DNA from: an uncultured Rhizobium sp.
GTDB taxonomy: Bacteria; Pseudomonadota; Alphaproteobacteria; Rickettsiales; UBA1997
DNA: 64,000 nucleotides
Direction: 5' to 3'
Assembly (NCBI GenBank): GCA_964580715.1
Contig: CAZOKU010000001.1
Span: 17,310 to 81,309, forward strand
Under the pieces are notes generated by a model that made no database searches, was not told the origin of the DNA, and worked only from the letters and a program-made list of their open reading frames with translations. Of this stretch, positions 1,041 through 52,125 are shown piece after piece (position 1 is the first letter of the stretch; every line of letters starts with the position of its first letter). Both the position numbers and the translations under genes were made by a program.

Positions 1041-4019
1041 ATGTCAAAAAATAGTAAATTTAACAAAGGATCAGATTGGAGACGATGGGATTTGCATGTT
1101 CACACCCCAGGAACAGCTTTGAATAACAATTATAGTGGCAACGATGCTGCGGTATGGGAAAAATTTATTAAAAAAATTGAAGAGCAGGAAAACGTTAAAG
1201 CTCTAGGTATTGCCGATTATTTATCTATCGAAGGATATAAAAAGGTTTTTGAATATAAAAAGAGCGGAAGGTTATCGAATATTGATCTTATAATTCCCAA
1301 TATCGAATTCAGGATTACGCCAGAAACCGAAAAATCCAAAGGAATAAATATACATATTCTCGTATCGCCTGAATTGGAAAATCATATTCAGATAATAGAG
1401 GAAAGCCTATCAAGACTGACTATTAAAATAAATGATCAACCTTTTGGCTGTTGTCGCAGCTCCTTTATAGCCATTGGTAAAAAAAGAGATAAGAATAGCA
1501 GTGATGAAGCCGCCTATAGAGAAGGAGTTAATCAATACAAAGTCGATTTTAGTTCTTTTCAAGAATGGTTTAAACAAGAACGTGTTTTACAGGAAAATAG
1601 CTTAATTGCTGTTTCCAACTCGACTAATGATGGCGTATCTGGATTACAAAAGGATAATGGATTTGCTGAAACCAGAGATCAGATTTACCGATTTACCGAT
1701 ATTATTTTTTCTGCGAGACCAAAGGATCGAGAATATTTTTTGGGAAAAGGCGCGGATAATCTGGATGTAATATGTGAAAAATATAAAGCCATTAAGCCAT
1801 GCTTACACGGATCAGATGCTCATTCGTTTGAAAAATTATTTGAGCCTGATGAAAAAAGATACTGCTGGATTAAAGCTGATTTAACATTTGAAGGATTAAA
1901 ACAGACTGTTATCGAGCCGGAAAGTCGTGTTTTTATAGGTGAAAAAGTTACTTCAGATAGCTTTCCTTCTCACGTAATAGATAAAATTCAAATTGATAAC
2001 GCCTTGTGGTTAAAAAATAATGCCATACCTCTGAATTCTGGTCTTGTTACAATAATTGGTGCTAGAGGTTCTGGAAAAACTGCTCTTGCCGACTTTATAG
2101 CTGTTGGAGGGTATTCCATGAATCAGCAAAAAAATGATCGCTCTTTTGTAAAAAGGGCAGAAGAAAAATTACGAGATGAATCAGTTAAACTTTTTTGGAA
2201 ATCGAAAGAAGAAACTTCAAATAATTTAAAAAGCATTGGTATTGAAGATATTTTATATGAGCCAAAGGTTCAGTATCTTTCTCAGCAGTTTGTTGATCAA
2301 TTATGCTCTGCCGATGGATTAACAAATGAGTTAATGAAAGAAATAGAGCGCGTTATTTTTGATTATCATAAACAAATAGATCGAAAAGGTGCCGAATCAT
2401 TTGATGAATTAATGGAGTTAGAATTATCTAGCGTAACAGAATCTAGAAAATTTCATGAAGACCAAATAAAAGATTATACAAACAACCTAAACATATTGCG
2501 CAGCAAAAAAGATAGTGTTCCAACCTCAAAGCAATCCCTGCAAAGCAAAAAAAAGACAATCGAAGAAGATAAAAAAAATAGACAGTCTTTAGTAGGAAAT
2601 GATCAAGAAAAACTCACCAAAGAATACGAAACTATTTCCAGTTTTTTGGATCAAATAAGAGTAAATTTAGAAAATGAAACTCGCAAAAAATCTTCTTTAG
2701 AAACCTTAAAAACGGTTACTGTTAACATTAAAAATAATGTTATTCCAAATTCTTTAAGAAAATTAAAACAAGAACATCCTGGAGTTAACCTCACAGAAGA
2801 TCAATGGGGAAAGTTTGAATTGAGTTTTAAAGGAGATGTGGAGCAGATATTGTCTGCAGAAATTTTAAAATCTGAAAAAATAATTACTTCTATTACTGGT
2901 ATGAAAGTTCCTGAAATCAAAGATGATCAACTAAAAGTTTCCATAATACTTCAAGACTCTGATTTATCAAAACAGAGCTATAATCTTTTAAAAGCAGAAC
3001 AAGGTAGAATTGAGAGATTGATTGGTATTGGAAAAGAAAATGCTGTAAAGCTCAGGAAAATTTCTGAAAAAATTACCAAAGATGAAGTTGCTTATACCAA
3101 GCTAGAAAATGAGATAAAAGAAGCTGAATCATCTGGTGAAAAAATAGCTGAATTGACGCGTTTAAGAAAAGAATCTTACAAGAACGTATTTGGGACTTTG
3201 GTGGAGCATGAAAAAATTCTAGAGAATCTTTATCAACCATTAATGGAAGGTATCAAAGATGATGAAGGCACATTAGGAAAATTAACATTTCATGTACAGA
3301 GATTCGTTGATATTGATGAATGGGTAAAAAGTGGGGAGAATTTGCTGGATTTAAGAAAAGGTACCACCTTTAGAAGAAAAGGCTCTCTTCATGAAATTGT
3401 TAAAAAATCCATACTTCCTGTTTGGCAAAAAGGATCGGCAGAAGATGTTGCAAATGCTATGGAAAAATTTTTAGAAGAATATACTAACTCACTACTGGAA
3501 TGCTCTCCAGTAGAAAAACAAGAAGCCAATTTATTTAGAGACTGGGCTAATAAAATTTCCGCGTGGCTTTACAGCACCGATCATATATCAATAAACTATG
3601 GTGTACAATATGATGGGGTCAGTATTCAACAGCTATCTCCAGGAACGAGAGGAATTGTTTTATTACTTTTGTATCTAGTTATCGATAAAGATGATTATCG
3701 ACCTCTTATAATAGACCAGCCAGAAGAAAATCTCGATCCAAAATCAATTTTTGATGAATTGGTGACAAGATTTCGTTCAGCAAAGCGAAAAAGGCAAATC
3801 ATAATAGTAACGCATAATGCAAATTTGGTTGTTAATACTGATGCTGAGCAAGTTATTGTAGCATCCTGCTTATCTCACCAACAAAACCAACTACCAGAGA
3901 TAGGTTATATATCTGGTAGTTTAGAAAATCCTGAGATTCGCAAGAAAGTCTGTGAAATATTGGAAGGTGGAGAAAAGGCATTTAAAGAAAGAGCAAAAAG
4001 ATTGCGAGTTTCTATGTAA
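1041..4019 (+). CDS. PHP-domain phosphoesterase fused to SMC/Rad50-like ABC ATPase (TrlF/PplA-like architecture)
   Basis: N-terminus has WDLHVHTPGT, NIEFRI, NIHILV and HGSDAHS, which are PHP metal-binding motifs. These are followed by Walker A GARGSGKT, a ~300-aa Lys/Glu-rich coiled-coil, signature-like QLSPGTRG, Walker B LIIDQPEENLD and H-loop IVTHNANL. A GAGGT SD-like sequence lies upstream, 47 nt after the preceding stop. Confidence 0.75.
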   Translation: MSKNSKFNKGSDWRRWDLHVHTPGTALNNNYSGNDAAVWEKFIKKIEEQENVKALGIADYLSIEGYKKVFEYKKSGRLSNIDLIIPNIEFRITPETEKSKGINIHILVSPELENHIQIIEESLSRLTIKINDQPFGCCRSSFIAIGKKRDKNSSDEAAYREGVNQYKVDFSSFQEWFKQERVLQENSLIAVSNSTNDGVSGLQKDNGFAETRDQIYRFTDIIFSARPKDREYFLGKGADNLDVICEKYKAIKPCLHGSDAHSFEKLFEPDEKRYCWIKADLTFEGLKQTVIEPESRVFIGEKVTSDSFPSHVIDKIQIDNALWLKNNAIPLNSGLVTIIGARGSGKTALADFIAVGGYSMNQQKNDRSFVKRAEEKLRDESVKLFWKSKEETSNNLKSIGIEDILYEPKVQYLSQQFVDQLCSADGLTNELMKEIERVIFDYHKQIDRKGAESFDELMELELSSVTESRKFHEDQIKDYTNNLNILRSKKDSVPTSKQSLQSKKKTIEEDKKNRQSLVGNDQEKLTKEYETISSFLDQIRVNLENETRKKSSLETLKTVTVNIKNNVIPNSLRKLKQEHPGVNLTEDQWGKFELSFKGDVEQILSAEILKSEKIITSITGMKVPEIKDDQLKVSIILQDSDLSKQSYNLLKAEQGRIERLIGIGKENAVKLRKISEKITKDEVAYTKLENEIKEAESSGEKIAELTRLRKESYKNVFGTLVEHEKILENLYQPLMEGIKDDEGTLGKLTFHVQRFVDIDEWVKSGENLLDLRKGTTFRRKGSLHEIVKKSILPVWQKGSAEDVANAMEKFLEEYTNSLLECSPVEKQEANLFRDWANKISAWLYSTDHISINYGVQYDGVSIQQLSPGTRGIVLLLLYLVIDKDDYRPLIIDQPEENLDPKSIFDELVTRFRSAKRKRQIIIVTHNANLVVNTDAEQVIVASCLSHQQNQLPEIGYISGSLENPEIRKKVCEILEGGEKAFKERAKRLRVSM

Positions 4020-4041
4020 TAAAAAATTAGAGAGGAAAGCT

Positions 4042-4992
4042 ATGCTTGGAAAATTAGAGAAAGTCGATTTACGCCAAATATGGCAGACTGAAGGACAAGG
4101 TTTTACGCCGTGGCTTGCGCGTGAGGAAAATTTGGAGATGCTTGGAGAAGTGATTGGAATTGAATTGGAACTTGAGGCGCAGGAAAAAGATGTGGGACCA
4201 TTTAGAGCGGATATTTTGTGTAAGAATACCGAAGATGACAGCTTGGTTTTAATCGAGAATCAGATTGAAAGAACTGATCATAAGCATCTTGGTCAGCTTT
4301 TGACTTACGCAGCTGGATTACAGTCTGTTACGATCGTTTGGGTGGCAGCGAAATTTACTGAAGAGCATCGTGCAGCACTTGATTGGCTTAATGAAATTAC
4401 AGATGAGAAGTTTCGTTTTTTTGGTTTAGAAGTGGAATTGTGGAAAATTGGTAATTCAGCAGCTGCGCCAAAGTTTAATGTGATTTCTAAGCCTAATAAT
4501 TGGAGCAAAACCGTTTCTCAGGCAGCAAAAGAGATTTTAGATCAAACGACCAGTGAAACCAAGCTTTTGCAATATCGTTATTGGGAAAAACTAACTGAAT
4601 ATCTTGAAGAAAATAAATCAAAGCTTCGTCCGCAAGATTCTCGTCCTAAGCATTGGCAAATTTTTACTATTGGTCGTAGCGGATTTCATTTAGCTGCGCT
4701 TTTAAATACGCGTGATAAGAAAATTGGAGTTGAGTTAGTGATTGTTGATAAGGATGAGGCAAAAGGATTTTATCATCTTTTAGCAAAAGATAAATCAGCA
4801 ATTGAAGCTGAAATTGGATGTGCTTTGGAATGGAGAGAAAATCCGGAAAAGATTCAATCAAAAATTGCTTTGTTTAAAAATTTTGATCCTACCAACGAAG
4901 CGAGCTGGCCATCTCAGCATGAATGGATGAAAAGTACGGTTGAAAAATTTGATACTGTTTTCAGAAAACGAGTTCGTTCTTTAGCTATCTGA
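4042..4992 (+). CDS. PD-(D/E)XK nuclease-like protein with DUF4268-type C-terminal domain
   Basis: Start chosen at ATG 4042, preceded by AGAGGAAAG. FRADILCK...LVLIENQIERTDHKHLGQLLTYAAG...IVWVAAKFTEEHRAALDWLN is the D...E-x-Q core plus conserved block of this family. The gene begins 22 nt after the ATPase stop. Confidence 0.7.
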   Translation: MLGKLEKVDLRQIWQTEGQGFTPWLAREENLEMLGEVIGIELELEAQEKDVGPFRADILCKNTEDDSLVLIENQIERTDHKHLGQLLTYAAGLQSVTIVWVAAKFTEEHRAALDWLNEITDEKFRFFGLEVELWKIGNSAAAPKFNVISKPNNWSKTVSQAAKEILDQTTSETKLLQYRYWEKLTEYLEENKSKLRPQDSRPKHWQIFTIGRSGFHLAALLNTRDKKIGVELVIVDKDEAKGFYHLLAKDKSAIEAEIGCALEWRENPEKIQSKIALFKNFDPTNEASWPSQHEWMKSTVEKFDTVFRKRVRSLAI

Positions 4993-5304
4993 TTTCAGCA
5001 TCACAAATCTAAATTCACCGCGCGTTGCAACAATTTTTAGATTCTTTTTCCCACATTCAAAATAACCAGTATATTTTTCATAATTTTTAATTGGCTCGCG
5101 TTCAAGAGTCAGAGTAAACAGATTAACTCCAGCGCTCTCAGTTTCTCTAAAATCTTTCAAATCATAAAATGATTTTTTGTCAGAAGTTTCTGCCATTAAG
5201 TTAACAGCCTCTTCAAAAACATCGATCAGTTTTTCAATTTCCTGATCAGTGCATTTTTTATTTCTGACATCCTCAATAAATCCCTTGTAAATTAATCGGT
5301 TCAT
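4981..5304 (-). CDS. hypothetical protein (107 aa) at distal end of lysis operon
   Basis: Only substantial ORF in this gap. It is convergent with the DUF4268 gene and overlaps it by 12 nt. No recognisable motif. Confidence 0.45.
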   Translation of the reverse strand: MNRLIYKGFIEDVRNKKCTDQEIEKLIDVFEEAVNLMAETSDKKSFYDLKDFRETESAGVNLFTLTLEREPIKNYEKYTGYFECGKKNLKIVATRGEFRFVMLKSDS

Positions 5305-5389
5305 AAACTTTTTTAAAAATTGCTAAAGTGTCACGACACCAATGAACCCTTCGTTTTAAACACTTATCAAGTGGAATGATTGAAAATCT

Positions 5390-5602
5390 TCACTTAGTGC
5401 AATGTTCCTCAAATTCTTGGTTAAAATTGTCGATTTGGCGCAAGGTTTCTTCGGACATTGTGTCGTATTCTTCTTGACTCAAAGTTATGGGATTTGCCCA
5501 CAAGCAAAAGCTATTTACGGATGTATTTTTGCATCCGGCGCTTAACATCAGAAATATCATCATGCTTGCGAATTTCCTGCCTCTTTTTGGATTCAATTGC
5601 AT
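5390..5602 (-). CDS. o-spanin (outer-membrane lipoprotein, Rz1/LysC-like)
   Basis: Start at internal ATG 5602 gives MQLNPKRGRKFASMMIFLMLSAGC, i.e. a basic n-region, a hydrophobic core and a lipobox-like LSAGC. The gene starts inside the i-spanin gene in another frame and extends beyond it (overlapped architecture). Confidence 0.6.
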   Translation of the reverse strand: MQLNPKRGRKFASMMIFLMLSAGCKNTSVNSFCLWANPITLSQEEYDTMSEETLRQIDNFNQEFEEHCTK

Positions 5603-5726
5603 CGCTAAAATTTTCTTCAATTTGAAATGATTTCTGAGATTTTTTGCCAAGGAGGTTTCCGATTGTGAAAATGGCTAGGACTGCACCAAGAGCTGCAATT
5701 ATTTTTCCTATTAAACTTTGAATCAT
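5511..5726 (-). CDS. i-spanin (Rz/LysB-like, N-terminal TM + charged helix)
   Basis: Has an N-terminal TM segment (LIGKIIAALGAVLAIFTIGNLL) followed by a highly charged region. It sits directly after the holin and overlaps the lipoprotein ORF. Confidence 0.6.
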   Translation of the reverse strand: MIQSLIGKIIAALGAVLAIFTIGNLLGKKSQKSFQIEENFSDAIESKKRQEIRKHDDISDVKRRMQKYIRK

Positions 5727-5968
5727 TCCTTTCTGCCTCTGATAACTTTTTCAAAAATACCAATTCCCAGCAAGCTGCTACCAGAGATTAAAAAAGTGTT
5801 AATAATTCCTAGCGCTGTATCAGCATCTTTTGCACCAATTCCAAGGCTGTAAAAAAACAAGATAATTGAAAACATAGTGCCAATAGAAAGAAGAATGGTT
5901 CCCCATAATCTTTTGGAAGACTTGTTGCCACTGGCATCTTGAAGATATTTGTTCGCCATTTTAATCAC
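5723..5968 (-). CDS. holin (two predicted TM helices)
   Basis: 81 aa with two hydrophobic helices and a charged C-terminus. It lies between the endolysin and the spanins, with overlapping start/stop codons on both sides. Confidence 0.6.
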   Translation of the reverse strand: MIKMANKYLQDASGNKSSKRLWGTILLSIGTMFSIILFFYSLGIGAKDADTALGIINTFLISGSSLLGIGIFEKVIRGRKE

Positions 5969-6350
5969 TCAACTCAAAATGAGGTAAATCAAAAAATTTC
6001 TGGTCTTTTAAATCATTATCACCATCCCAATCAGCGCCGCAGCGTATCTTGATTCCTAACTGATCTGCTGTTGCTTTAACATATCCGGCAAAGTGATAAA
6101 ATTTTTCTTTGTCATTCCAATTGATTGGAGCCGGTGCAGCATCAAGTGCAAGAGATGGTGTTTGATTATGTTTACCATCACTTTTAATCTTTGATTTTCC
6201 TTCTTTAAAAGCTTTTAGCTGATCTTGTTCTGATCTATATCCTTCAATGATTGTGCAGTCATAATTTTTTATAACTTCATGGAAGAGTTTTTGTAAATTT
6301 GGATGACAAGTAGATAGCTTTTCCAAAGAGGATTTAGAAAATTTTGGCAT
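5961..6350 (-). CDS. endolysin, M15-family L-alanyl-D-glutamate peptidase (T5 endolysin-like)
   Basis: Motifs align along the whole length with the T5-type peptidase pattern: IIEGYRSEQDQ, GKHNQTPSLALDAAP, INWND, GIKIRCGADWDGDND, DLPHFEL. Confidence 0.8.
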   Translation of the reverse strand: MPKFSKSSLEKLSTCHPNLQKLFHEVIKNYDCTIIEGYRSEQDQLKAFKEGKSKIKSDGKHNQTPSLALDAAPAPINWNDKEKFYHFAGYVKATADQLGIKIRCGADWDGDNDLKDQKFFDLPHFELSD

Positions 6351-26480: not shown

Positions 26481-28379
26481 TTAAAAAATTCCTTTGCTTC
26501 TTACTTTTCTAACGCGTTGGTAAATTGGTTGAGTAGTTTGTTGAATATTTTGAATCTGTTTATTTTCTGATCTAAGCGGAATTTCTTTTAGCTGTTGATG
26601 AATTTTATTTAGATCAAACTTCCAGTTACGAATAAGCCCACGCAGAGCAGCAAAAGCATAAACTCTACAATCAAGTGCTTCAGTTTTTGCTCCTTCACGG
26701 CGCGGTATCCATTCTCTTACTGGTCTGCCTTTGACATATTTGGTTTTAACAATTTCAGAAGTAATTTGAGTAAACCATTCAGCATCGCGTTCCATTGGAA
26801 AGTGCCAGTAACCAGCACCTTCTTCAGCAATGCGTAACCTTTGCATTAAAGTTTCCTTAGCATCGTTAACACCAATTACATAAACCGGTTTTTTTAATCT
26901 TTTATTTTGACTGGCGCGAGGTGGCCAAATTGGAACTCCAGCTCCACTTGAACTTCCTTTTATTGCAAAAACTTTTTTATGTTTTCTAGTATCGCAATAA
27001 TTGATAACATGATCGGTATAGTGACCGCCGCTATCAATGCAGGTTGCTGCAATTGAAAAATTCGGTAGTTCTCTTTGATGCTCAAAAGTTGTTTCTAAAA
27101 TTTTGTCGAGATCATTCCAAAGATGCGGAGTTGAGGGGTCGCCGTAAATCACCTGATAATCAAGTGACCAACTTTCTTCATCTTTTCCCCAACCAACAAT
27201 TTCGATCTCAAGACGATTGTCTTGCACGTCAACACCAGCAGTGATGAGAACAATATTTTTGCAAATTCTAGTACCAAAATTTTCACGACGCTTCATTAAT
27301 CCGCTTGGATCAATAACTTCACCAGCCATGTCCTCCCAAGTTTCGGCAAGTTTTGTGTTTGTCCAAACTTGAAGCCTTGGCGGGTCTTTGTGAACCTCGC
27401 AAAATTCCTGTGCGATATTGCCAAAACTTGTCCAGCCATGAGGGCTGTAAAGTGATGACAAATGAAAGGAAATCGTTTTGCTGTTAGCATTTGGGCTAGT
27501 TGCTACCCATTTACCTTTCCGTAAAATTTCTGCTTTCTGATAATCTTCCCAAACTGATCCGCATTTTTCGCAAGCGTAATAAGCAGATTCCGGCTTTCCT
27601 TTTGGCCATTTAACTTGTGACCACTTAAGAATTTGAAATTCACCGCAATCAGGGCATGGCACGAAGTAATAACGCTGATCACCTTCCAAAAATGCCGTTT
27701 CAATTCGACTAAAATTTTTGATCGTTGGTGTTGAGATCATGAAAATTTTGCGATTGGAAAACGTTGCCGTTCTCTGAATTGCCAAATTTACAGGATCACC
27801 TTCGCCACCCGCATCATCTGGATAACCATCAACCTCATCAAGAAAGAGATAACGAATCGGCATCGAACGAAGACCAACGGCAGAATTAGCGCCGGTCATA
27901 ACCAGAACACCGCCTGGAAATTCCTTCATCAAAATTGTATTGCCGCTATCTCTGGCGCGAGGGTCTTTTACTTTTTCTTTTAGTGCCGGACAATTTTCTA
28001 TCGCCGGATCAATCCGCATTTTTGAAGTGCGCTTTGCCGTCTCAACTGTTGGATTTACGATTAACATTGGCCCTGGGGCGTGATGAATCACAAAACCCAT
28101 CCAGTTATTACCGCATTCAGTCCCACCAATTTGCGCGCCTTTCATGAAGACAACTTTTTCGCAAGGATTTGATGGTGAAAGACAGTCCATAATTTCTTTC
28201 AAATATGGTGTTCTGTCAGTTCTCCATGCGCCAGGCTCTGAAGATGAAATGCTGCTTAAAACACGGTGATTATCTGCCCAACTTGATACTGTAAAATTAG
28301 GATCAGGCGTTAAGCCTGCGTGATGGTTTTGAAGATAAATATGTTCATAATTTTTCATTAACCTTGGAAAGTTCCTCAA
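26481..28379 (-). CDS. terminase large subunit (lambda GpA-like)
   Basis: 632 aa. KGAQIGGTE Walker A-like motif, LFLDEVD Walker B, zinc ribbon CPDCGEFQ...CEKCGSVW, and a C-terminal nuclease region. Confidence 0.9.
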   Translation of the reverse strand: MRNFPRLMKNYEHIYLQNHHAGLTPDPNFTVSSWADNHRVLSSISSSEPGAWRTDRTPYLKEIMDCLSPSNPCEKVVFMKGAQIGGTECGNNWMGFVIHHAPGPMLIVNPTVETAKRTSKMRIDPAIENCPALKEKVKDPRARDSGNTILMKEFPGGVLVMTGANSAVGLRSMPIRYLFLDEVDGYPDDAGGEGDPVNLAIQRTATFSNRKIFMISTPTIKNFSRIETAFLEGDQRYYFVPCPDCGEFQILKWSQVKWPKGKPESAYYACEKCGSVWEDYQKAEILRKGKWVATSPNANSKTISFHLSSLYSPHGWTSFGNIAQEFCEVHKDPPRLQVWTNTKLAETWEDMAGEVIDPSGLMKRRENFGTRICKNIVLITAGVDVQDNRLEIEIVGWGKDEESWSLDYQVIYGDPSTPHLWNDLDKILETTFEHQRELPNFSIAATCIDSGGHYTDHVINYCDTRKHKKVFAIKGSSSGAGVPIWPPRASQNKRLKKPVYVIGVNDAKETLMQRLRIAEEGAGYWHFPMERDAEWFTQITSEIVKTKYVKGRPVREWIPRREGAKTEALDCRVYAFAALRGLIRNWKFDLNKIHQQLKEIPLRSENKQIQNIQQTTQPIYQRVRKVRSKGIF

Positions 28380-28851
28380 GCGCTTTGATCAGCTCGGCTT
28401 TTAAAATTTCTTTCATCTCAAAAATATCAGTCTTGCCAACTAATTGCGGAATAACGCGGTCGGGGATATTTAAAATTCGATCACGCGTCATTCTTGCCGC
28501 GTTAAAAGCTATGATTTTTACTTCATCAACTGGAATTAATTTTTTTGACTCTTTCTCAAATTGTAATCTGAGTAGCTTCGCACCATAAGCCTCTTTAATC
28601 GCACGACTTTGTTGATAACTTGGTCCGTTTGCTGTGTTTGGTATAGAATTTTGGTTATAATCGGGCTTTTCTTCAGAAAATATTGCCTTTATCTGCGCCG
28701 GATCGGTGTTTTTACCCCATTCGCTATTAGCAATTTTAGGATTTATTTTGCCGGTTTTGCTTTTGCTGATTCTTCCTTGCCTGATTGCTTTTCTAACTGC
28801 CGCCTCGCTAACACCGCGATGTCTGGCATATCCTCTGATAGAGAGTTCCAT
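28345..28851 (-). CDS. terminase small subunit
   Basis: N-terminal HTH (IRGYARHRGVSEAAVRKAIRQGRI). Overlaps the large subunit by 35 nt. Confidence 0.7.
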   Translation of the reverse strand: MELSIRGYARHRGVSEAAVRKAIRQGRISKSKTGKINPKIANSEWGKNTDPAQIKAIFSEEKPDYNQNSIPNTANGPSYQQSRAIKEAYGAKLLRLQFEKESKKLIPVDEVKIIAFNAARMTRDRILNIPDRVIPQLVGKTDIFEMKEILKAELIKALEELSKVNEKL

Positions 28852-33371: not shown

Positions 33372-35486
33372 TCATAACTGCACCTCGTCATCGCTAAGAA
33401 TCCAGACTGCAGGATTTTCAACTGGAAGAACTGCTCCAGTCTTTGTGCATTTAAAATGGCTCGGAAGAATTGGTATTTCAGCGCCATCTTTATTTTTGAA
33501 AACCATCTGTTCCACGCATAAGATACCATATTTTGACTTAACCTGTTGCAGTGAAAGTTCCGACCAATTGCGTGTGAATTTTATGTGACCCTTAGTTGCT
33601 AAAACCGAAATTCTGTCATTGATGGTAGTCTTACATCCCAGTCCAGCTTCGTTTTCAAATCTTTCAGAAAATTGATTTGCTGTGTAAACTTTGCCTTTTA
33701 ATGCTTCATCATAGATGAGTTGTAAAATGACATCAGCTTTACGAACTCTTTCAGCATCAAGTCTTTGACCATAATCTTGCTGAATTAATCTTTCTGAAAA
33801 CGGATTTAACTCGGTCCATTTACCATCAACTTTTTCGACAATTTTTCTTGGAATTGCGCTGCCATTTCTAAGTTCAAAATAAAGATGAATTTTAGAATCC
33901 ATTTCATCAGGACGATGCAAAATCAAACCAGTAGTGTAAAAACTTCTCAAACTTCCGGCACCGGAAAACGCTTGAAACGGATCGTCTTCTAAATCCTTCT
34001 TTTTGATTTTTTTTGTATGGTGACAAAGAATCACGCCCATGTCGGGATTGAGCATTGATCTCAATTTTTCCACTCTGTTTTGCAGGAAAAATAACATAGC
34101 ATTATTGTCATTTTCTGATCCTTCAGCGCCGCCATCAAAAATATTGCGGATTGGGTCAATGCAAATGATGTCAGGAGGTTGATCAGGAAAATAATGTTTG
34201 ATTGTACGGTAAGCAGATTCAACACCTTGATCATTTAAAATCATTTGAACTCGTGAGGTGATGATCAGATTCTGAGAAGATTTAAAAACTATTTCTTCCC
34301 CGATTTTTAATTTTTTGATACGCTCGCGAATATAGTGGTAACCGATCTCAGCTTGAAGATAAAAAATTTTAAGTGGCTTTGGTGGTTTTAATCCTAAAAA
34401 ATTTTCACCGGCAGCAAGGTGGATTAAAAAATTGATCAGAAAATCACTTTTCCCGACTTTTGGCGCACCACCAATCAACATCATTCCAGCTGGAGTCAAA
34501 AGTCTTGGAGTTATCAAATCATCCGGCATCGGGCTATTGTCGGACAAGAAATCACTGATTGAATAACTTGGTAATTTTTCATCTACTCCTTTCGCAGCTT
34601 CAAGAAAATGGTGGATGTTAAAGTTTTCTTTTACTGCATCAGCGGCATCCCATTTTTCCGGTTTTTCTTTTGCAGGATTTGCAATTGATACAAAGGACGC
34701 AACTTTAACCAAATGCTGTGCGACTTTTTGTGCGTAGTCTTTTCCAGCATCATCATTATCAGGCCAAATTATTACTTCTTTGCCAATCAGCGGCGACCAA
34801 TCAGTTTTGTTGATTGGCGCGTTTGCACCAAACATTGCGGTTGTTGCAGTGAGTCCATAAGCAATTAAACTGTCGGCAGATTTTTCACCTTCAACAAGAA
34901 TAATTTTTTTTGCGGCGACTATTCCTGGAATGTTGTAAAGCGGTCGTGGATCAGGAGATTTAGCTTTGCGATTTTTCACATCCCAAACTCTGAATTCTTT
35001 TCCATCTTCAGTGTCGTAGCGATAAACGCAGGCGATCAGCTTATTGTTTTTATCAAAGTAATCCCACTTAGCAGTTGGTTTGCCGAGATCATCTGTAAAA
35101 TTACGTTGAATAGTTTTTTGCTGAATTTCAGAAGAGACAGGATTGCCAAGCCACTGACTAATTTCGGCGAGAAGTTTGTTGAATTCTGATTTGTGATAAT
35201 TTCCGACAAATTCCCAAAGCGTAAAAATATCTCCGCCTTTGTTTTCAGCAAAATCAAACCATTGTCCTTGCTTTTCACCGGCAAGTTGAACGATCAAACT
35301 TTTTCCTGCTTCGCCTTTGATGTTGCCAATGTGAAAGCAGTTATTTTTGATGTGACCATTTGGCAGAAGATAAAATAAAACATCTTCAATTCTGTTAAGT
35401 AGTGCTTTCCTGATCAATTCAACATCAATTTTTACATTCTCTTTTTGCTGATTATCGGCGTTGTTAAAATCTAGAGGTTGGTTCAT
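33372..35486 (-). CDS. TOPRIM primase fused to RecA-fold (DnaB/RepA-like, AAA_25-type) helicase
   Basis: TOPRIM motifs LVEGEKSADSL and IWPDNDDAGKDYA, plus the P-loop GGAPKVGKSDF. Start set at ATG 35486, which forms an ATGA overlap with the upstream stop. Confidence 0.85.
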   Translation of the reverse strand: MNQPLDFNNADNQQKENVKIDVELIRKALLNRIEDVLFYLLPNGHIKNNCFHIGNIKGEAGKSLIVQLAGEKQGQWFDFAENKGGDIFTLWEFVGNYHKSEFNKLLAEISQWLGNPVSSEIQQKTIQRNFTDDLGKPTAKWDYFDKNNKLIACVYRYDTEDGKEFRVWDVKNRKAKSPDPRPLYNIPGIVAAKKIILVEGEKSADSLIAYGLTATTAMFGANAPINKTDWSPLIGKEVIIWPDNDDAGKDYAQKVAQHLVKVASFVSIANPAKEKPEKWDAADAVKENFNIHHFLEAAKGVDEKLPSYSISDFLSDNSPMPDDLITPRLLTPAGMMLIGGAPKVGKSDFLINFLIHLAAGENFLGLKPPKPLKIFYLQAEIGYHYIRERIKKLKIGEEIVFKSSQNLIITSRVQMILNDQGVESAYRTIKHYFPDQPPDIICIDPIRNIFDGGAEGSENDNNAMLFFLQNRVEKLRSMLNPDMGVILCHHTKKIKKKDLEDDPFQAFSGAGSLRSFYTTGLILHRPDEMDSKIHLYFELRNGSAIPRKIVEKVDGKWTELNPFSERLIQQDYGQRLDAERVRKADVILQLIYDEALKGKVYTANQFSERFENEAGLGCKTTINDRISVLATKGHIKFTRNWSELSLQQVKSKYGILCVEQMVFKNKDGAEIPILPSHFKCTKTGAVLPVENPAVWILSDDEVQL

Positions 35487-36241
35487 ACATTCAACCTCCA
35501 GCAACGCTGTTGCCAAGGACAGAATTTACACTCAAAGTGTGTTGAATCTGTTGCGATTCTTGGAAGTAATTCGTGAGCTTCAGTAGCGCATAAAATTTTT
35601 ACTGCTCTATCACTACTTTTTTGTGCGAGTTCTTGATCAAAAGGAATTAACTCAAAATGAATTTCTGCGGTGTCTTTGTTAATCGCTGTGAAGAGAGCAG
35701 GATTTTTACAAATGCCTTCGATTTGGCTTTCCATGTAGGCTTGGTAAATTGCCACTTGCGCCGCATAAATTGGTTTTGAGATAACCAAACCTTTTTTAAC
35801 AACATCTTTCCACGATTTGTCATTGAGTGATTTGCATTCCCAAAGCATCGGAAATTTGAACTCAAGATCTACTGGAGCATCAATAATAACACCATCAATA
35901 TGACCTTTAACTTTGCCACCAGCGACAGTAAATCCGAATTGATTTCCGTTTTGTTTTTGTGTTACGAGATTAATTCCAGCAAGCCTCAACCACTTAATCA
36001 TCAATTCTTCAAACACATGTCCTGCTTGAAAAATTCTTAAAATTTTTCCGCTGAAATTCTGATCTTCATCTTTGGGCGTTTCGGTATATTCAAACTGCAA
36101 AGCACGATCACAAGATACGCCCAGCCTTGATGCGCCGAGATAATCACGAGGAGTTTGTTTCGATTGTTCTACTGTCAGCGCTTTGTCGATCAGCAGATTT
36201 ATTTTTTCTGAAATTTTTGGTCGGTGATTAAAATCTAACAT
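35483..36241 (-). CDS. PD-(D/E)XK exonuclease, Cas4/RecB-like with C-terminal Cys cluster
   Basis: HIDGVI...MLWECKS (D...ExK), QVAIYQAY (QxxxY) and CKFCPWQQRC. Confidence 0.8.
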   Translation of the reverse strand: MLDFNHRPKISEKINLLIDKALTVEQSKQTPRDYLGASRLGVSCDRALQFEYTETPKDEDQNFSGKILRIFQAGHVFEELMIKWLRLAGINLVTQKQNGNQFGFTVAGGKVKGHIDGVIIDAPVDLEFKFPMLWECKSLNDKSWKDVVKKGLVISKPIYAAQVAIYQAYMESQIEGICKNPALFTAINKDTAEIHFELIPFDQELAQKSSDRAVKILCATEAHELLPRIATDSTHFECKFCPWQQRCWRLNV

Positions 36242-38890: not shown

Positions 38891-39730
38891 TTAATTATTG
38901 TTAAAATTTAAATGTTCGTTGATTGGCTTTGCTGCTGAGCGTATTTTTTCCATCAATCGTCCAAGATGAGGTTCTTCAATTGCTTCAAGTCTTCGTGAAC
39001 GATCTTTAGCCGGATAACCAAATTGGTTGATCGTTTGACAAATGAAGGCACGGAAAGATTTACCTTTATCTTCAAGTTGAATCTCAGCCATTGTGATCAC
39101 TTGATCAACAATGCCTGGCAGCTCCAATCCGGTTTTGCTTCCTTCAATTTGTGGCTGGAAATATTTGCGGTTAAAATCATCAAGCTTTTCATCGAGGATC
39201 CCGACAAACCAAATGTTCTTAGCGCGCGTGTGTTGAAGATGAGTGAGCCATCCGATCATTTCGCGACCATGTAAACCATAAGCTCCGCGAGTATCCGGCT
39301 TTCCCGACTTCTCGCTAAAGCTTTCAGGTTGTCCTTGGCAATATCCAAAACACAAACGACCAGCGACTGTTATGCTGTCGATGAAAATTGTGTCGTATTT
39401 ATCAAGGATTGAGGGCTCACCGAACTTTTGACAAACTTCGTCATAGTGCGCTTGAGAGAATTTTTGATCAGGGCGAAGCGCGCGGTTTGGTCCGCCGATG
39501 AAAACTGCAAAGTCGCAACATTCTTGCCATGTTTTTGGTCTGATTGTGTCACCTTGCCAGCCTTCAACTGCCAAGTCGCCAGCTTCAAGATCAAAGAAAA
39601 GAGTGGTTTTTGGGTCTAAAGTCCAAAGCAAAGAAGTTTTTCCGATGCCGGATTTTCCAAAGATGCAGCCTTTGATTCCTTTGGTTTCTTTTAAGCGTTC
39701 ATCAGCACTAATAATTGGAAGACTACTCAT
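38891..39730 (-). CDS. AAA_24-type ATPase (Sak4-like RecA-fold recombination protein)
   Basis: P-loop IFGKSGIGKTSL near the N-terminus. Size and neighbourhood are typical. Confidence 0.8.
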   Translation of the reverse strand: MSSLPIISADERLKETKGIKGCIFGKSGIGKTSLLWTLDPKTTLFFDLEAGDLAVEGWQGDTIRPKTWQECCDFAVFIGGPNRALRPDQKFSQAHYDEVCQKFGEPSILDKYDTIFIDSITVAGRLCFGYCQGQPESFSEKSGKPDTRGAYGLHGREMIGWLTHLQHTRAKNIWFVGILDEKLDDFNRKYFQPQIEGSKTGLELPGIVDQVITMAEIQLEDKGKSFRAFICQTINQFGYPAKDRSRRLEAIEEPHLGRLMEKIRSAAKPINEHLNFNNN

Positions 39731-40211: not shown

Positions 40212-40416
40212 GACGCACCTCCTGAGCTTTTGATTTTTTATCAAGAGAGCCTTCATCCTCATATTTCTTAATAGCAGCTTCGGAATATCTAACTCTGCCA
40301 CCAAATTTAACATATTCAGGACCATCGCCACTAGCGCGCCAGCGCTGCAATGTTTTTTCAGAAATACCCCATTTTTTGGCGACATATTTCTCGGAGTGAT
40401 AATTTTCTTTTGTCAT
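40201..40416 (-). CDS. small HTH DNA-binding protein (excisionase/MerR-like HTH_17; Cro-like position)
   Basis: VAKKWGISEKTLQRWRASGDGPEYVKFGGRVRYSEAAIKKYE. First gene of the replication operon. Confidence 0.7.
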   Translation of the reverse strand: MTKENYHSEKYVAKKWGISEKTLQRWRASGDGPEYVKFGGRVRYSEAAIKKYEDEGSLDKKSKAQEVRHEG

Positions 40417-40429
40417 TTGTGCTTTGCGT

Positions 40430-40455
40430 TAATTGATAAAAATCCAAATCAATTA
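40430..40455. promoter_or_regulatory. inverted repeat TAATTGAT-N10-ATCAATTA just upstream of the HTH gene start
   Basis: Perfect 8-bp arms, beginning 14 nt upstream of start codon 40416. Confidence 0.5.
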
Positions 40456-40505
40456 GAACCAAAAATGGTCACTGATTTGACTTGCACAAAGTTAGAGAGT
40501 GGGGG

Positions 40506-40544
40506 GTATAAAAATCGGTATAGCTATGGTATGAAAAGCGGTAT
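40506..40544 (-). promoter_or_regulatory. 39-bp bipartite element (copy 1): ATACCGCTTTTCATAC-cat-AGCT-ATACCGATTTTTATAC on the minus strand
   Basis: 35/39 identical to 50251..50289, including an exact 20-mer. It has the same orientation relative to the downstream small HTH gene. Confidence 0.8.
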
Positions 40545-40589
40545 GATTTTGATTTTGTTAGGGAGTTTTTAAGAAATGAGAATCTGAGT

Positions 40590-41492
40590 CTAGATATTGA
40601 GCCAGTAATATCCTTTTTTGTCGTTCTGTAAAATGTTATGGCGAATATTTTTTGAATCTGGACTTCTGAATAATGTTTTTAATTCTGTACTACTTTCAGT
40701 GACTTCTACCATTATTTCATCTTTATGTACTGGCTTTCTTGCTTTGTGTAAATATTCCAAAACATCCGCCTCTTGTTTGGTAAATCTGAAATACTCACCA
40801 TTAAAACAAGCACTGCGATAACCAATTGTAAAACCATCTTTTGATGTTTTAAATACTGCGGATTTCAGAGCGCCTTTATCAATATGAAAATTTTTCTTGT
40901 TAACAGAGAGGCAATTTTTGAGGGAAATGATTTTATTGCCGGCAATCTTTGAATTGAAGTAACTCGGAATATCGTTGCAGCTAGTCAGGATTAAACCCTG
41001 AAAAGTCGATTTTCTTTTTATAAGCACCTTTTTAATCTTATCAAAAATCTCTTCTTGTCTAATTTTTCTAGCAAAAAAAACTGGCACTTCAATATCAAGA
41101 TTAGCAACGCCAATACCCCACAACAAATTTGGCAAAATTTCTTCACAGTCTTTATCAGAAATACCAAAATCATTGCCGATATTTCTTACAATCCAGTCTA
41201 GCCTTAAATTATATTTCGTGAAATTTTCAAAAGAGACAGGAACAAATTTATTATTTTGGTCAAAATAACCAGGCTGGTTATTCCTGAAACATAAATTTTC
41301 AGCATCTCCATTTTTGTTAATGCAATAATCAAGACTATCTGTGGTAAATGCTCCATGAGCTACAAGGTTAGTCATCTCATCAGCAAAATGATTAGCTATT
41401 CGATGTGTTATTGAGGGGCTATCATTTTCACATATTTCACAAGCGAACAGAAAGGATTTTCTAGAGACTTGATTGCTTATTGTAGCAGTCAT
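40590..41492 (-). CDS. hypothetical protein (300 aa) with possible C-terminal winged-helix (OmpR/PhoB-like) segment
   Basis: Long ORF. The C-terminal FTKQEADVLEYLHKARKPVHKDEIMVEV resembles the effector-domain wHTH pattern. Remainder not recognised. Confidence 0.5.
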   Translation of the reverse strand: MTATISNQVSRKSFLFACEICENDSPSITHRIANHFADEMTNLVAHGAFTTDSLDYCINKNGDAENLCFRNNQPGYFDQNNKFVPVSFENFTKYNLRLDWIVRNIGNDFGISDKDCEEILPNLLWGIGVANLDIEVPVFFARKIRQEEIFDKIKKVLIKRKSTFQGLILTSCNDIPSYFNSKIAGNKIISLKNCLSVNKKNFHIDKGALKSAVFKTSKDGFTIGYRSACFNGEYFRFTKQEADVLEYLHKARKPVHKDEIMVEVTESSTELKTLFRSPDSKNIRHNILQNDKKGYYWLNI

Positions 41493-41530: not shown

Positions 41531-41941
41531 TCATATATTTCGCGCCTCTAATAGTCCCCAAGATTCTAAATATTTGCTAATCACAGGATGATTAATAGTG
41601 GTTTTGATATTGCTAAAATATTTTATTTTAACCGGTATCGTATTTTTCTTTTTGTTTAAAAATCCTTCGTAAAATACAATATCAATACTGATTTCTTTTA
41701 CAGCAATACAACTGGTAGAAATGTTCTTTGCTTTAATTGCATCAAATATGACTTTTTTGTTATCGTTAACAGCAAAAGAAAAATCATAACTTTCACAAGG
41801 TGAAACCACTGTAACATCTTTAATTTTTACATCTTTGATTCCATCTTTTGGATCTGTAGAAAATTTAAAATCATCAATCAATTTTTCAAAATTTTGTGAG
41901 ATGTTGAAAGATTTTCTAAATAAAACTTCATTATTATTCAT
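41531..41941 (-). CDS. hypothetical protein (136 aa), first gene leftward of the immunity region
   Basis: ORF with beta-rich composition. No motif recognised. Confidence 0.45.
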   Translation of the reverse strand: MNNNEVLFRKSFNISQNFEKLIDDFKFSTDPKDGIKDVKIKDVTVVSPCESYDFSFAVNDNKKVIFDAIKAKNISTSCIAVKEISIDIVFYEGFLNKKKNTIPVKIKYFSNIKTTINHPVISKYLESWGLLEARNI

Positions 41942-42008
41942 TGTGATACTATATTACTTGATAATAAGTCCCCGAACCGATCCTTTGGGAGGGCATAATA
42001 CGCATTGG

Positions 42009-42035
42009 ACTTGATTCTTACCACATAAATCAAGT
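42009..42035. promoter_or_regulatory. inverted repeat ACTTGATT-N11-AATCAAGT in the divergent immunity intergenic region
   Basis: Perfect 8-bp arms 50 bp upstream of the S24 gene. A third ACTTGAT half-site lies at about 41957. Confidence 0.45.
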
Positions 42036-42084
42036 TTTTTAAAACTTTTGTGGAAAATAGTGTATCATTTTAAGACAATTACAG

Positions 42085-50551: not shown

Positions 50552-51745
50552 TTATTTGTTTAATTTGTCTAAATAATCAGCCCACCATTGCATCATCTCT
50601 TTGCGTTGTTCGAGATATTCAGCTTTGTTATAAGTGCCACGAACCTTGTTATCTTCTACGTGTGAAAGTTGTCTTTCAATCCAGTCTGAATTAAAATTAC
50701 TTTCATTTAATATTGTAGAACCTGTATGACGGATACCATGTGGAGTCATCTTATTTTCGCTGAGTTTTCTCATCGCCTTAATCAGAGCCACATCAGAGAT
50801 TGGTTTTTTCATTCCAACTTTTCCTGGAAAAAGGTAAGAAGAATTTCTGCCTAGATTACGAATGGTTTTTAAAATTGATAAAGCTTGTTTTGATAATGGC
50901 ACAAGATGTTCACGCTTTTTCTTCATTCTCCCAGCTGGAATATGCCAAATTGCTTTTTTCTCATCAAACTCTTTCCATTCAGCAAATCTGATTTCACCAG
51001 GGCGTTGCAAAGTTAAGACCAATAACTTTATCGCAAGAATAGTTATGTTTTCCTCTTCTGACGAATAAAGCTTCTCAATAAAATCCGGTAATTCTTTATC
51101 AGAAAGATGAAGTCGATTTTTTATTGTGTGAGATTTTAAAAATTTTGCTCTGCCCAAAGCAGGATTTGAATCACAAATTCCCATCACCAAAGCGTAATCA
51201 AATATTTCAGTGCAATATCCGTTAATTCTTTGGGCAACAGAAACTGCATCACGCTGTTCAATGTTTCGTAAAATTTGCAAAATATCTTGAATGGTAACTT
51301 CTTTAATTCCTTTCCAACCAATGATCGGATAAACATCTTTTTCTAGTCGGCTTTTAATATTTTTAGAATGCTTTTCAGTCCAAGATTGTTTTTGACGCCA
51401 TTCTTCGGCGATGCTTTCAAAAGTGTTTTCTGCCCTTAATATAGCTTCCTGTTTTTGAGCTTTTTTATTTTTGTTTGGATCAAGGCCGCGAGAAAGTAGA
51501 TCTCTAATTTCATCTCTCGCTTTTCGAGCATCAGCTAATGACACAAATCCAGCTCTATCTCCATATTTTCCAAGTGTAGCAACATTATTTTTTCCGTTAA
51601 ACTTATAAGGATACTGCCAAACTTTAGTGCCACTTGGTCTTATCAAAAGTCTTAGTTTTGCATCATCAAATAAAAAATAATTCTTATCTTTTGGTTTTGC
51701 TTCTCTGATTTCCCGATCAGTAAGTTTGCGATTATTTTTGGGCAT
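50552..51745 (-). CDS. int: tyrosine integrase (P4-type, DUF4102 N-terminal arm-binding domain)
   Basis: N-terminal LTDREIREAKPKDKNYFLFD...LRLLIRPSGTKVW. C-terminal HGIRHTGSTILNE...LSHVEDNKVRGTYN (R..HxxR..Y catalytic region). Confidence 0.9.
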   Translation of the reverse strand: MPKNNRKLTDREIREAKPKDKNYFLFDDAKLRLLIRPSGTKVWQYPYKFNGKNNVATLGKYGDRAGFVSLADARKARDEIRDLLSRGLDPNKNKKAQKQEAILRAENTFESIAEEWRQKQSWTEKHSKNIKSRLEKDVYPIIGWKGIKEVTIQDILQILRNIEQRDAVSVAQRINGYCTEIFDYALVMGICDSNPALGRAKFLKSHTIKNRLHLSDKELPDFIEKLYSSEEENITILAIKLLVLTLQRPGEIRFAEWKEFDEKKAIWHIPAGRMKKKREHLVPLSKQALSILKTIRNLGRNSSYLFPGKVGMKKPISDVALIKAMRKLSENKMTPHGIRHTGSTILNESNFNSDWIERQLSHVEDNKVRGTYNKAEYLEQRKEMMQWWADYLDKLNK

Positions 51746-51934: not shown

Positions 51935-51953
51935 AAAAACTTTGGCTTCAGGC

Positions 51954-52051
51954 GAATTTTAACGAATTTCTTCGAAAAGGAGAGTGGCTTGGAAGCCGCT
52001 TGTGTGTAGGACTTATCGGATTTTAACGGATTTCTTTGAAAGTGGAAGTGG
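51954..52051. repeat. imperfect ~34-bp direct repeat (GAATTTTAACGAATTTCTTCGAAAAGGAGAGTGG / GGATTTTAACGGATTTCTTTGAAAGTGGAAGTGG), second copy abutting the tRNA 3' end
   Basis: Units at 51954..51987 and 52018..52051, period 64 bp, roughly 27 of 34 positions identical. Confidence 0.75.
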
Positions 52052-52125
52052 TTGCGGGGGCTGGATTTGAACCAACGACCTTCAGGTTATGAGCCTGACA
52101 AGCTACCGGGCTGCTCTACCCCGCG
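52049..52125 (-). tRNA. tRNA-Met (CAT), initiator type
   Basis: The reverse complement reads CGCGGGGTAGAGCAGCCCGGTAGCTTGTCAGGCTCATAACCTGAAGGTCGTTGGTTCAAATCCAGCCCCCGCAACCA. This is a full cloverleaf with a C1xA72 mismatch, A11:U24 and an encoded CCA, near-identical to E. coli tRNA-fMet. Confidence 0.92.

Follow-up and report, generated by a model that had tools for sequence, protein, structure and literature searches.

Paired direct-repeat arrays at two outward-facing promoters of an alphaproteobacterial prophage and a candidate winged-helix regulator encoded beside them

The window analyzed here, a stretch of 64,000 nucleotides (64 kb) from a contig of an uncultured Rhizobium sp. (CAZOKU010000001.1, positions 17,310 to 81,309), carries a prophage in which a 39-bp element occurs twice. 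One copy (siteA) precedes the early/replication operon on the minus strand, and the other (siteB) faces the opposite way, ahead of the gene of a small AlpA-type protein and a converging tyrosine integrase (Table 1). Between the two copies lie p300 and p136, two minus-strand genes whose products have no Pfam or PHROG match, the divergently transcribed gene of an S24-like protein and a block of cargo genes; the p300 gene ends 45 nt from siteA. The operon behind siteA begins with the gene of a helix-turn-helix (HTH) protein, HTH_17, and continues on the minus strand with, in order, phrog_2480, AAA_24, phrog_2300, a DEAD helicase, DUF6511, a Cas4-like exonuclease and a primase/helicase. Phage structural genes lie on the same strand, beyond the primase/helicase end of this replication module. 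A preliminary description of this DNA had noted a small HTH gene of about 72 codons downstream of each copy, which agrees with the Pfam matches of the 71-aa HTH_17 and 73-aa Phage_AlpA proteins, two proteins with little similarity between them (36% over 36 aa, E 0.016). It had also assigned the 71-aa HTH_17 gene to the Cro position. That assignment was not upheld, because p136 and p300 occupy this position, divergent from the S24-like gene, and the operon that comes next opens with HTH_17.

Table 1 Features of the regulatory region and its surroundings, in coordinates of the window
Feature	Position	Strand	Remarks
HTH_17 protein, 71 aa	40201..40416	-	Pfam HTH_17, E 1.1e-9; first gene of the early/replication operon
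Putative -10 TAACTT (siteA)	40489..40494	-	11 nt past the last ATAC
siteA	40506..40544	-	four direct ATAC(CG) repeats; ATAC starts at 40544, 40532, 40521 and 40509
p300, 300 aa	40590..41492	-	orphan regulator, proposed binder; predicted winged helix at residues 218-300 (nt 40593-40841)
p136	41531..41941	-	conserved partner gene upstream of p300
Palindrome CTTGATT-N11-AATCAAG	42010..42034		in the p136/S24 divergent region; conserved; a class of cis-element distinct from the ATAC repeats
S24-like protein, 181 aa	42085..42630	+	conserved N-terminal HGGYRxGAGRKP arm; catalytic Ser replaced (GCEL)
Cargo block, 7.5 kb, eight genes	42668..50186	+	between the S24-like gene and siteB
siteB	50251..50289	+	second four-repeat array, oriented toward AlpA and Int
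Putative -10 TAATCT (siteB)	50301..50306	+	11 nt past the last ATAC
AlpA-type protein, 73 aa	50329..50550	+	Phage_AlpA, E 4.4e-8; presumed excisionase or regulator
Tyrosine integrase (Int)	50552..51745	-	Arm-DNA-bind_3, Phage_int_M and Phage_integrase domains; converges on AlpA
tRNA-Met (CAT)	52049..52125	-	integration target

The siteA 39-mer reads ATACCGCTTTTCATAC-CAT-AGCT-ATACCGATTTTTATAC on the minus strand and the siteB 39-mer reads ATACCGATTTTAATAC-TAC-AGCT-ATACCGATTTTTATAC on the plus strand. The positions of the two, their identity at 35 of 39 positions and the exact 20-mer common to both (AGCTATACCGATTTTTATAC), all given in the preliminary description, were reproduced from the window sequence, and a repeat search returned the two loci as an inverted repeat of 64 nt at 78% identity (40487-40550 vs. 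50245-50308). The sequence ATACCGnTTTTnATAC has exactly four copies in the 64 kb (0 expected), arranged as two 39-bp pairs, siteA on the minus and siteB on the plus strand. The pattern ATACCGNTTTTNATAC likewise gave four mismatch-free matches vs. 0.00 expected from 100 dinucleotide shuffles, and in a relaxed scan the four true units differed from the consensus at 0-2 positions and everything else in the 64 kb at four or more. In both window copies ATAC starts at offsets 0, 12, 23 and 35, i.e. with a spacing of 12, 11 and 12 nt, which places all four repeats on one face of the helix, and T-tracts separate the successive repeats. Since three or all four repeats of the array read ATACCG in relatives, the unit is a hexamer present in four copies, at intervals of roughly one turn of the helix. 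The element is not palindromic, its repeats being direct and not inverted, and a direct-repeat period of ~11 nt, as in Pho-box sites and sites resembling those of the Streptomyces antibiotic regulatory proteins (SARP), was found in the window copies and in all relatives, including those with the ATCCCC variant described below.

Operators of the CI/Cro type were considered for these arrays and rejected, as the repeats are direct and lie outside the divergent region (41942-42084), which has a palindrome of its own. Arm-type or Xis sites of attP, which would be expected at the prophage ends and no more than ~200 bp from the att core, were rejected as well, because siteB lies ~1.76 kb from the 3' end of the tRNA with int between them and siteA ~11.5 kb away; this reading is also countered by the occurrence of the element beside serine recombinases and in islands without an integrase.

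Each array is followed by a C-rich spacer of 11 nt, counted from the last ATAC, and then by a hexamer of the form TAnnnT, which we regard as a putative -10. The 11-nt gap and positions T1, A2 and T6 of the hexamer are invariant in every aligned A-type, B-type and satellite copy, including those of relatives in which p300 is 37-58% identical, and the array is always directed at the downstream gene, 40-130 nt from its start codon. At neither siteA nor siteB was a -35-like hexamer found 16-18 nt upstream of the putative -10, and a scan with the sigma-70 consensus promoter gave no match at either site. A promoter of the Bacteroidetes type was considered, as TAnnTTTG follows the element, and dropped since every carrier bears the label Alphaproteobacteria or Rickettsiales; a sigma-54 promoter was set aside for lack of a correctly spaced GG/GC pair. 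The distances from the element to the open reading frames (ORFs) had been given as 89 nt (start at 40416) and 39 nt (start at 50329). The former was confirmed and the latter holds for the annotated start, but the true start of AlpA is probably 50341 (ATGACA...), which gives a gap of 51 nt to siteB, since relatives align only from residue 4-5. The annotated start lies inside an inverted repeat of the leader.

Conserved inverted repeats are present in both leaders, at 40417-40488 behind siteA and at 50307-50340 behind siteB. The A-type leaders have nested repeats (CTTTGYG...CRCAAAG) with inner stems, and of the 19 pairs predicted in them 8 show compensatory changes; the putative -10 and the 5' arm of the repeat overlap. 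The B-type and satellite leaders share TCACA-N13-15-TGTGA, of which the window has the version CTCAT..ATGAG; the RNA hairpin of the B-type leaders is weak (-2.45 kcal/mol, one covarying pair).

The distribution of the element was followed with a motif scan (ATACCG-N6-ATAC-N7-ATACCG-N6-ATAC, the T-tract not being demanded) of a genome collection of 185,579 species, in which 49 stretches matched, and of the IMG/VR viral contigs. A T-rich array was present in 19 stretches from the genome and viral scans, all of them in viral contigs or in low-GC metagenome-assembled genomes (MAGs) that carry the label Alphaproteobacteria or Rickettsiales. All 19 lie in the regulatory regions of prophages or satellite-like elements and none at a host promoter; the other matches of the scan (Microcoleus, Aldehydirespirator and others) are unrelated repeats. 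With four units in 64 kb and 19 of 19 T-rich matches so placed, the element does not behave as a dispersed genomic repeat, the possibility that the preliminary description had set against a regulatory role. Searches with the window proteins (tblastn) showed that the order p136, p300, siteA and HTH_17 in one direction and S24-like gene, siteB and AlpA in the other, with Int converging on AlpA, is kept in about a dozen prophages from MAGs of low-GC freshwater Alphaproteobacteria. Moreover, siteA stands upstream of the HTH_17 operon in all relatives that encode p300. The two copies are often identical over all 39 nt within one phage (L002, L013, L003/L035, L004/L032), and the spacers vary between phages. 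The outward-facing pair is thus conserved among related prophages, and this conservation, with the frequent identity of the copies within a phage, supports the earlier suggestion that the early operon and excision module share one regulator. The proposed link of the element to AlpA-type genes, on the other hand, was not borne out: in L032, L047 and L049 siteB precedes a 69-aa ORF, DUF2924 and a large serine recombinase, so that the element is not tied to AlpA, and it also heads a satellite-like operon.

The relatives also bear on the status of the cargo. In L001, L002 and L013 siteA and siteB are only ~2.2 kb apart, and siteB starts ~45 nt past the stop codon of the S24-like gene; cargo between the S24-like gene and siteB is absent at the corresponding position in relatives, and the int/tRNA-Met junction of the window recurs in L007, L022, L029 and L035. 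Because the S24-like gene of relatives is followed within ~45 nt by siteB and then by AlpA, Int and tRNA-Met, the 7.5-kb cargo is, on this gene order, an insertion into one prophage and not a second island, in line with the earlier argument for one element rather than two tandem islands. A search for att sites found no repeat of at least 16 nt of the tRNA 3' end or of the int-proximal region elsewhere in the window that would mark the left end of the prophage; the conclusion of one element rests on synteny with relatives. A direct repeat of 25 nt (TTTCAAAGAAATCCGTTAAAATCCG, with 3 mismatches) occurs at 51953-51977 and 52017-52041, between the 3' end of tRNA-Met and int, with no other copy in the window; it likely represents arm-type or att-region repeats of the integrase, or the remnant of an earlier integration. 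The cargo genes encode PhzF, an M24 peptidase, three GNATs (one of them GNAT-like), an APH-family kinase, a Ser/Thr-kinase-like protein and a 781-aa protein with a beta-lactamase fold. Their position inside the regulatory cassette loosely recalls the accessory modules of WO-like phages, and L035 has a different insertion, of 2.1 kb, between AlpA and Int.

More distant relatives were compared as well. Homologues of p300 are few (35 in 5.8 billion proteins), and the contigs of the distant ones were fetched by protein similarity, free of ascertainment by the motif. In L055 (p300 58% identical) the array reads ATACCGATTTCTATAC-CGCCACT-ATACCGATTTATATAC, in L053 (55%) AGTACCGATTTCAATAC..ATGCCGATTTCCATAC, and in L052 (41%), which has no S24-like gene and has nevertheless kept the array, CTACCGgtttggCTACCGattttaCCAC; in all three it stands directly after the p300 gene and is followed by 11 nt and TAnnnT. 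The repeats of L055 and L053 are of the ATACCG type, and CTACCG is found in L052 and in L097, where p300 is 37% identical overall with the C-terminal domain kept (repeats CTACCGATTT). Phages of the L093 type have an HTH_17 protein that is 59% identical, with the same KTLQRWR helix, and an upstream regulator of ~314 aa that aligns with the N-domain of p300 only (26% over residues 8-205, E 1e-9), its C-terminus not being alignable; here the repeats read TCCCCC, with the same 11-nt gap and then TAAAGT. The high-GC relative L119 lacks p136 and encodes a 227-aa regulator, the C-terminus of which aligns with the winged HTH of p300 (hhalign E 6e-4), facing a canonical HTH+S24 repressor whose catalytic Ser is intact; its array consists of four ATCCCC repeats at 12-11-12. 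To judge from these natural variants, the repeat sequence follows the C-terminal domain of the upstream regulator, and not HTH_17, AlpA or the S24-like protein. Nor is the first gene behind the element always the same: it may be HTH_17, AlpA, the 77-aa HTH gene of the mini-islands described below, or that of a 63-69-aa protein accompanied by DUF2924 and a serine recombinase. The site they have in common can therefore not be put down to a downstream gene regulating itself. Among the candidate binders named in the preliminary description was the 300-aa protein with a winged-HTH-like fold, and co-variation together with the predicted fold points to this protein, p300, as the most likely binder of the element. 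As a further observation, L130, also of high GC, shares with L119 (3560-3790) the four ATCCCC hexamers at 12-11-12 upstream of HTH_17, and in both an inverted GGGGAT array lies ~50 bp upstream of these, an unchanged architecture with a different specificity.

Phages with the same early operon and other regulators came from an IMG/VR scan based on AAA_24, which gave at least 385 relatives; the best 80 of these loci are 75-93% identical and belong mostly to high-GC hosts. In some of the AAA_24 lineages the recombinase is a tyrosine Int, accompanied by AlpA, and in the others a large serine recombinase accompanied by DUF2924. Of annotated genes, those closest to the AAA_24 gene of the window (38891-39730) belong to Acidithiobacillus phage AcaML1 (60%) and to Wolbachia phage WO (53-56%). 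Apart from AAA_24 itself, phage WO lacks the features considered here (p300, HTH_17 and the repeat array), and its sigma-like neighbour gene proved unrelated to the 162-aa protein of the window. A search for HTH_17 homologues gave only four close matches, with no new contigs added by the viral scan, and blastn of the regulatory region against a phage database returned nothing.

The structural model of p300 (AlphaFold2, AF2; mean confidence, pLDDT, 81) has a C-terminal domain of the order beta-beta-alpha-alpha-alpha-beta-hairpin, and residues 218-300 modelled alone gave the secondary structure E-E-H-H-(H)-H-E-E, that of the OmpR/PhoB fold. Nearly all of the top 50 Foldseek matches of these residues in the PDB are DNA-binding domains of the OmpR/PhoB type (probability up to 1.00, TMq 0.5-0.66), among them those of YycF, ArlR, VicR, VanR, OmpR, SaeR, PhoB, PhoP, ToxR, CadC and AfsR. 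The domain is also the most conserved part of the protein (66-92% identity), Trans_reg_C is the commonest sub-threshold Pfam match in the family (4 of 26 members), and a profile search against the PDB gave in-register but non-significant matches to RstA, ArlR and DrrD (E 0.4-0.8). By these models the C-terminus of p300 is an OmpR/PhoB-type winged helix. None of the 35 homologues has a domain annotation of its own, and the N-terminal 215 aa of p300 are an orphan, with no matching fold or family and no initiator fold. Nor does p300 have the N-terminal receiver domain, with a phospho-acceptor Asp, of a two-component response regulator, as there was no match to Response_reg and full-length alignments to response regulators gave a root-mean-square deviation of 11-16 A. 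Domains of the OmpR/PhoB type bind head-to-tail on 11-nt direct repeats and contact sigma-70 (PMC4415409), which agrees with the geometry of the sites.

From the element with its conservation and geometry, from the co-variation and from the predicted fold we infer that the element is the cognate site of p300 and that p300 activates the promoters of the early operon and of the excision module jointly, with TAnnnT as the -10, a reading to which we assign a probability of about one half. In such a circuit the central switch would release p136-p300 at the onset of lytic growth, as suggested by the location of the regulator in the Cro position. The p300 protein would bind the four repeats head-to-tail, between about -62 and -24, and bring in RNA polymerase as PhoB or SARP activators do. 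The two outward promoters would then fire together, one toward HTH_17 and the replication genes and the other through AlpA toward int.

Several observations weigh against this reading. A siteB copy is absent in L052, L053, L055 and L097, so that duplication of the element before the recombination module, and with it the coupling to excision, is specific to one subclade. The Foldseek E-values of the C-terminal domain are only 0.02-0.2, and none of the 26 family members reaches the gathering score of Trans_reg_C (PF00486), the best having E 0.074 and the window protein giving no match. The putative -10 hexamers TAACTT and TAATCT are weak. In the cases where the regulator is swapped the p136-like gene changes too, and HTH_17 adjoins siteA always, so that linkage alone leaves HTH_17 in play. 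The S24-like protein of this clade has lost its catalytic Ser, a loss that bears on how the cascade would be triggered. Lastly, the arrays stand at exactly both borders of the central cassette, with no intrinsic terminator predicted between the S24/cargo operon and siteB or between p300 and siteA, an arrangement that fits a repressor or roadblock as well.

The S24-like protein has a basic HGGYRxGAGRKP arm at its N-terminus and no HTH, and its catalytic Ser is replaced across the clade (GCEL, GYHL, GCNL, GHHL, GDCM), the distant L097 homologue keeping GYSM. UmuD/LexA have GDSM/GMSM at this position, and with the catalytic Ser lost RecA-type autocleavage of the S24-like protein seems unlikely. 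The palindrome of the divergent region (Table 1), just upstream of a TATCAT -10 (42063-42068), is probably the operator of a second, dimeric regulator; placed at the S24-like gene's own promoter, it is a more natural dimer site than the ATAC array.

The element, together with a leader of the siteB type, also heads an island of 3-4 kb beside tRNA-Ala(ggc) or tRNA-Pro(tgg), found in seven independent contigs or MAGs (L020, L051 at 2200-6200, L058, L059, L060, L062 and L075). The genes of these mini-islands encode, in order, a 77-aa HTH_17 protein, a Toprim/AAA_25 primase, a 123-aa ORF product and a small terminase subunit (TerS). The primase is 67% identical to that of the window (33372-35516), and TerS matches phrog_57 (E 5e-31) and is 54% identical to the product of window positions 28345-28851. 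Of the features of a satellite, helper-related packaging and replication genes and a helper-type promoter are therefore present, and an integrase and att sites of its own are missing: no integrase ORF or Pfam match was found within or beside the mini-islands, and no att direct repeat at them. The island of L020 comes from the same MAG as the prophage L004/L032. In L058 there are two tandem copies of the promoter unit, and in L020 and L051 two to three inverted ATAC units lie just upstream. Distant primase homologues (59-65% identity, L061-L072) were considered and turned out to be phage copies, not satellites, in which the element is absent. By its gene content the mini-island looks like a minimal satellite carrying the regulatory site of its helper. 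The satellites would have captured the siteB-type promoter of the helper, so that they fire when its p300 is made, and p300-like proteins would consist of an orphan N-domain joined to an exchangeable OmpR-type wing. It is possible, though we put it forward tentatively and consider it on balance doubtful, that the element marks a small trans-acting regulon of a WO-like prophage lineage of freshwater Alphaproteobacteria and of a new family of minimal, integrase-less satellites that fire with the helper p300, and that in hundreds of phages of Alphaproteobacteria specificity is modular, with p300-like proteins matched to their own four-hexamer arrays.

Among the other explanations, the one that concerns us most is that p300 binds the array as a repressor or roadblock at the borders of a cassette expressed in the lysogen (p136-p300, S24-like gene and cargo), where it would occlude the outward promoters and block read-through into the replication and excision genes, so that loss of p300 activity would derepress both, and the satellite. 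In addition to the border placement and the lack of predicted terminators, the moron-like cargo is inserted inside the cassette, upstream of siteB, and OmpR/PhoB-family proteins are able to repress (PMC11825685). We nevertheless regard repression as unlikely. Promoters without a -35 and with a weak -10 have the look of promoters that need an activator, the array, which ends near -24, leaves -10 and +1 uncovered, and the 11-nt spacing, strictly invariant even in very divergent relatives, suggests a stereospecific contact with RNA polymerase; these same features favour activation. The regulator of L119, moreover, occupies the Cro position opposite an HTH+S24 repressor, which implies expression at lytic onset. 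It is very improbable that HTH_17, AlpA or both assemble as oligomers on the repeats and control each other's promoters as well as their own, in the way of recombination directionality factors (RDFs) such as RdfS or TorI. HTH_17 does lie immediately downstream of siteA in every relative, with a conserved putative recognition helix, and binding to repeated sites and to the promoters of their own genes is a property of RDF-type winged-HTH proteins (PMC11963761; PMC3509656), yet the L093-type HTH_17 with the same helix goes with TCCCCC repeats, AlpA is absent from the serine-recombinase relatives that keep the element, and the four first genes behind it are unrelated.

It is very improbable, too, that the S24-like protein acts as the repressor of the prophage, with the ATAC arrays as its operators at both promoters of lytic direction. 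An S24/LexA-fold protein dimerises symmetrically and already has a palindrome at its own promoter, the divergent p136/S24 region contains no ATAC repeats, L052 has the repeats and lacks the gene, and in L119 the same four-repeat architecture goes with a different S24 repressor, of the HTH type. These points outweigh the location of the gene in the CI position, a basic arm that could bind T-tracts and the start of siteB ~45 nt past the stop codon in relatives. We give hardly any credence to the arrays as iterons of a replication origin, or as recombination or boundary sequences for module exchange. Direct repeats do adjoin the replication module, an array stands in front of the primase in the mini-islands, and the frequent identity of the two copies in one phage could reflect gene conversion or recombination; a fixed orientation, however, with 11 nt to TAnnnT and 40-130 nt to a start codon, is not explained in this way, the N-domain of p300 matches no initiator fold, and we know of no precedent for two inverted origins flanking a regulatory cassette.

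The proposed joint activation by p300 provides a concrete circuit, open to experiment, for the regulation of a family of prophages of uncultured Alphaproteobacteria with a replication module closest to those of Wolbachia phage WO and AcaML1; the control of lysis and lysogeny in such prophages is, to our knowledge, poorly understood. An orphan family with no Pfam, PHROG or PDB match gains a likely function, that of a sequence-specific promoter regulator, and a DNA target, and the relatives offer natural specificity swaps between a DNA-binding domain and a repeat sequence. The 7.5-kb acetyltransferase/kinase/beta-lactamase-like block is to be seen as cargo within a prophage regulatory cassette. 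The candidate minimal satellites would extend the copying of a helper's activator box, as between SGI1 and AcaCD or P4 and P2, to a new host group.

Several known systems invite comparison. P4 shares Ogr/Delta sites with P2. Like the phage satellites P4, the phage-inducible chromosomal islands (PICIs) and the minimalist islands (PICMIs), the mini-islands have an AlpA/HTH_17-type gene, a primase/helicase, a phage-homologous TerS, a tRNA neighbour and a helper-type promoter; they differ in having no integrase, att repeats or capsid-remodelling genes. AcaCD of IncC plasmids and SetCD of SXT integrative and conjugative elements are master activators with boxes before several operons including xis, and SGI1-type islands copy these boxes and so sense the helper (PMC4207636, PMC4605294, PMC5058578). 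One regulator acting ahead of several operons, and a hitchhiking island that carries the box of its helper, would be the points of likeness; AcaCD and SetCD are FlhDC-like activators of conjugative elements, whereas here a prophage and a TerS-encoding island are concerned and the fold is unrelated. In phages T4 (MotA and Mot boxes), Mu (Mor/C) and P2 (Ogr) an activator from the first lytic transcript fires the next promoters from a box that replaces the -35. The proposed p300 circuit is similar in that a phage-encoded activator would act on promoters without a -35, and differs in the DNA-binding fold, in including the excision module and in that no co-factor of the AsiA type is evident.

In pho and SARP promoters the proximal repeat lies ~10 nt upstream of the -10. 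The p300 protein differs from PhoB and the SARP regulators in that it has neither a receiver domain nor the SARP BTAD/NB-ARC domains, is phage-encoded and belongs to a narrow family (35 homologues), and the repeats differ in being 12-11-12 hexamers with T-tracts. In common with the pho box of PhoB and the promoters of SARP-AfsR are direct repeats with a period of ~11 nt, suited to head-to-tail binding (PMC4415409), an array that would stand in place of the -35, and DNA-binding domains that the C-terminal fold of p300 matches best. In these terms there is nothing unusual in what the element is, an array placed close to a promoter to serve a regulator of the phage; the protein family in which it occurs is uncharacterised.

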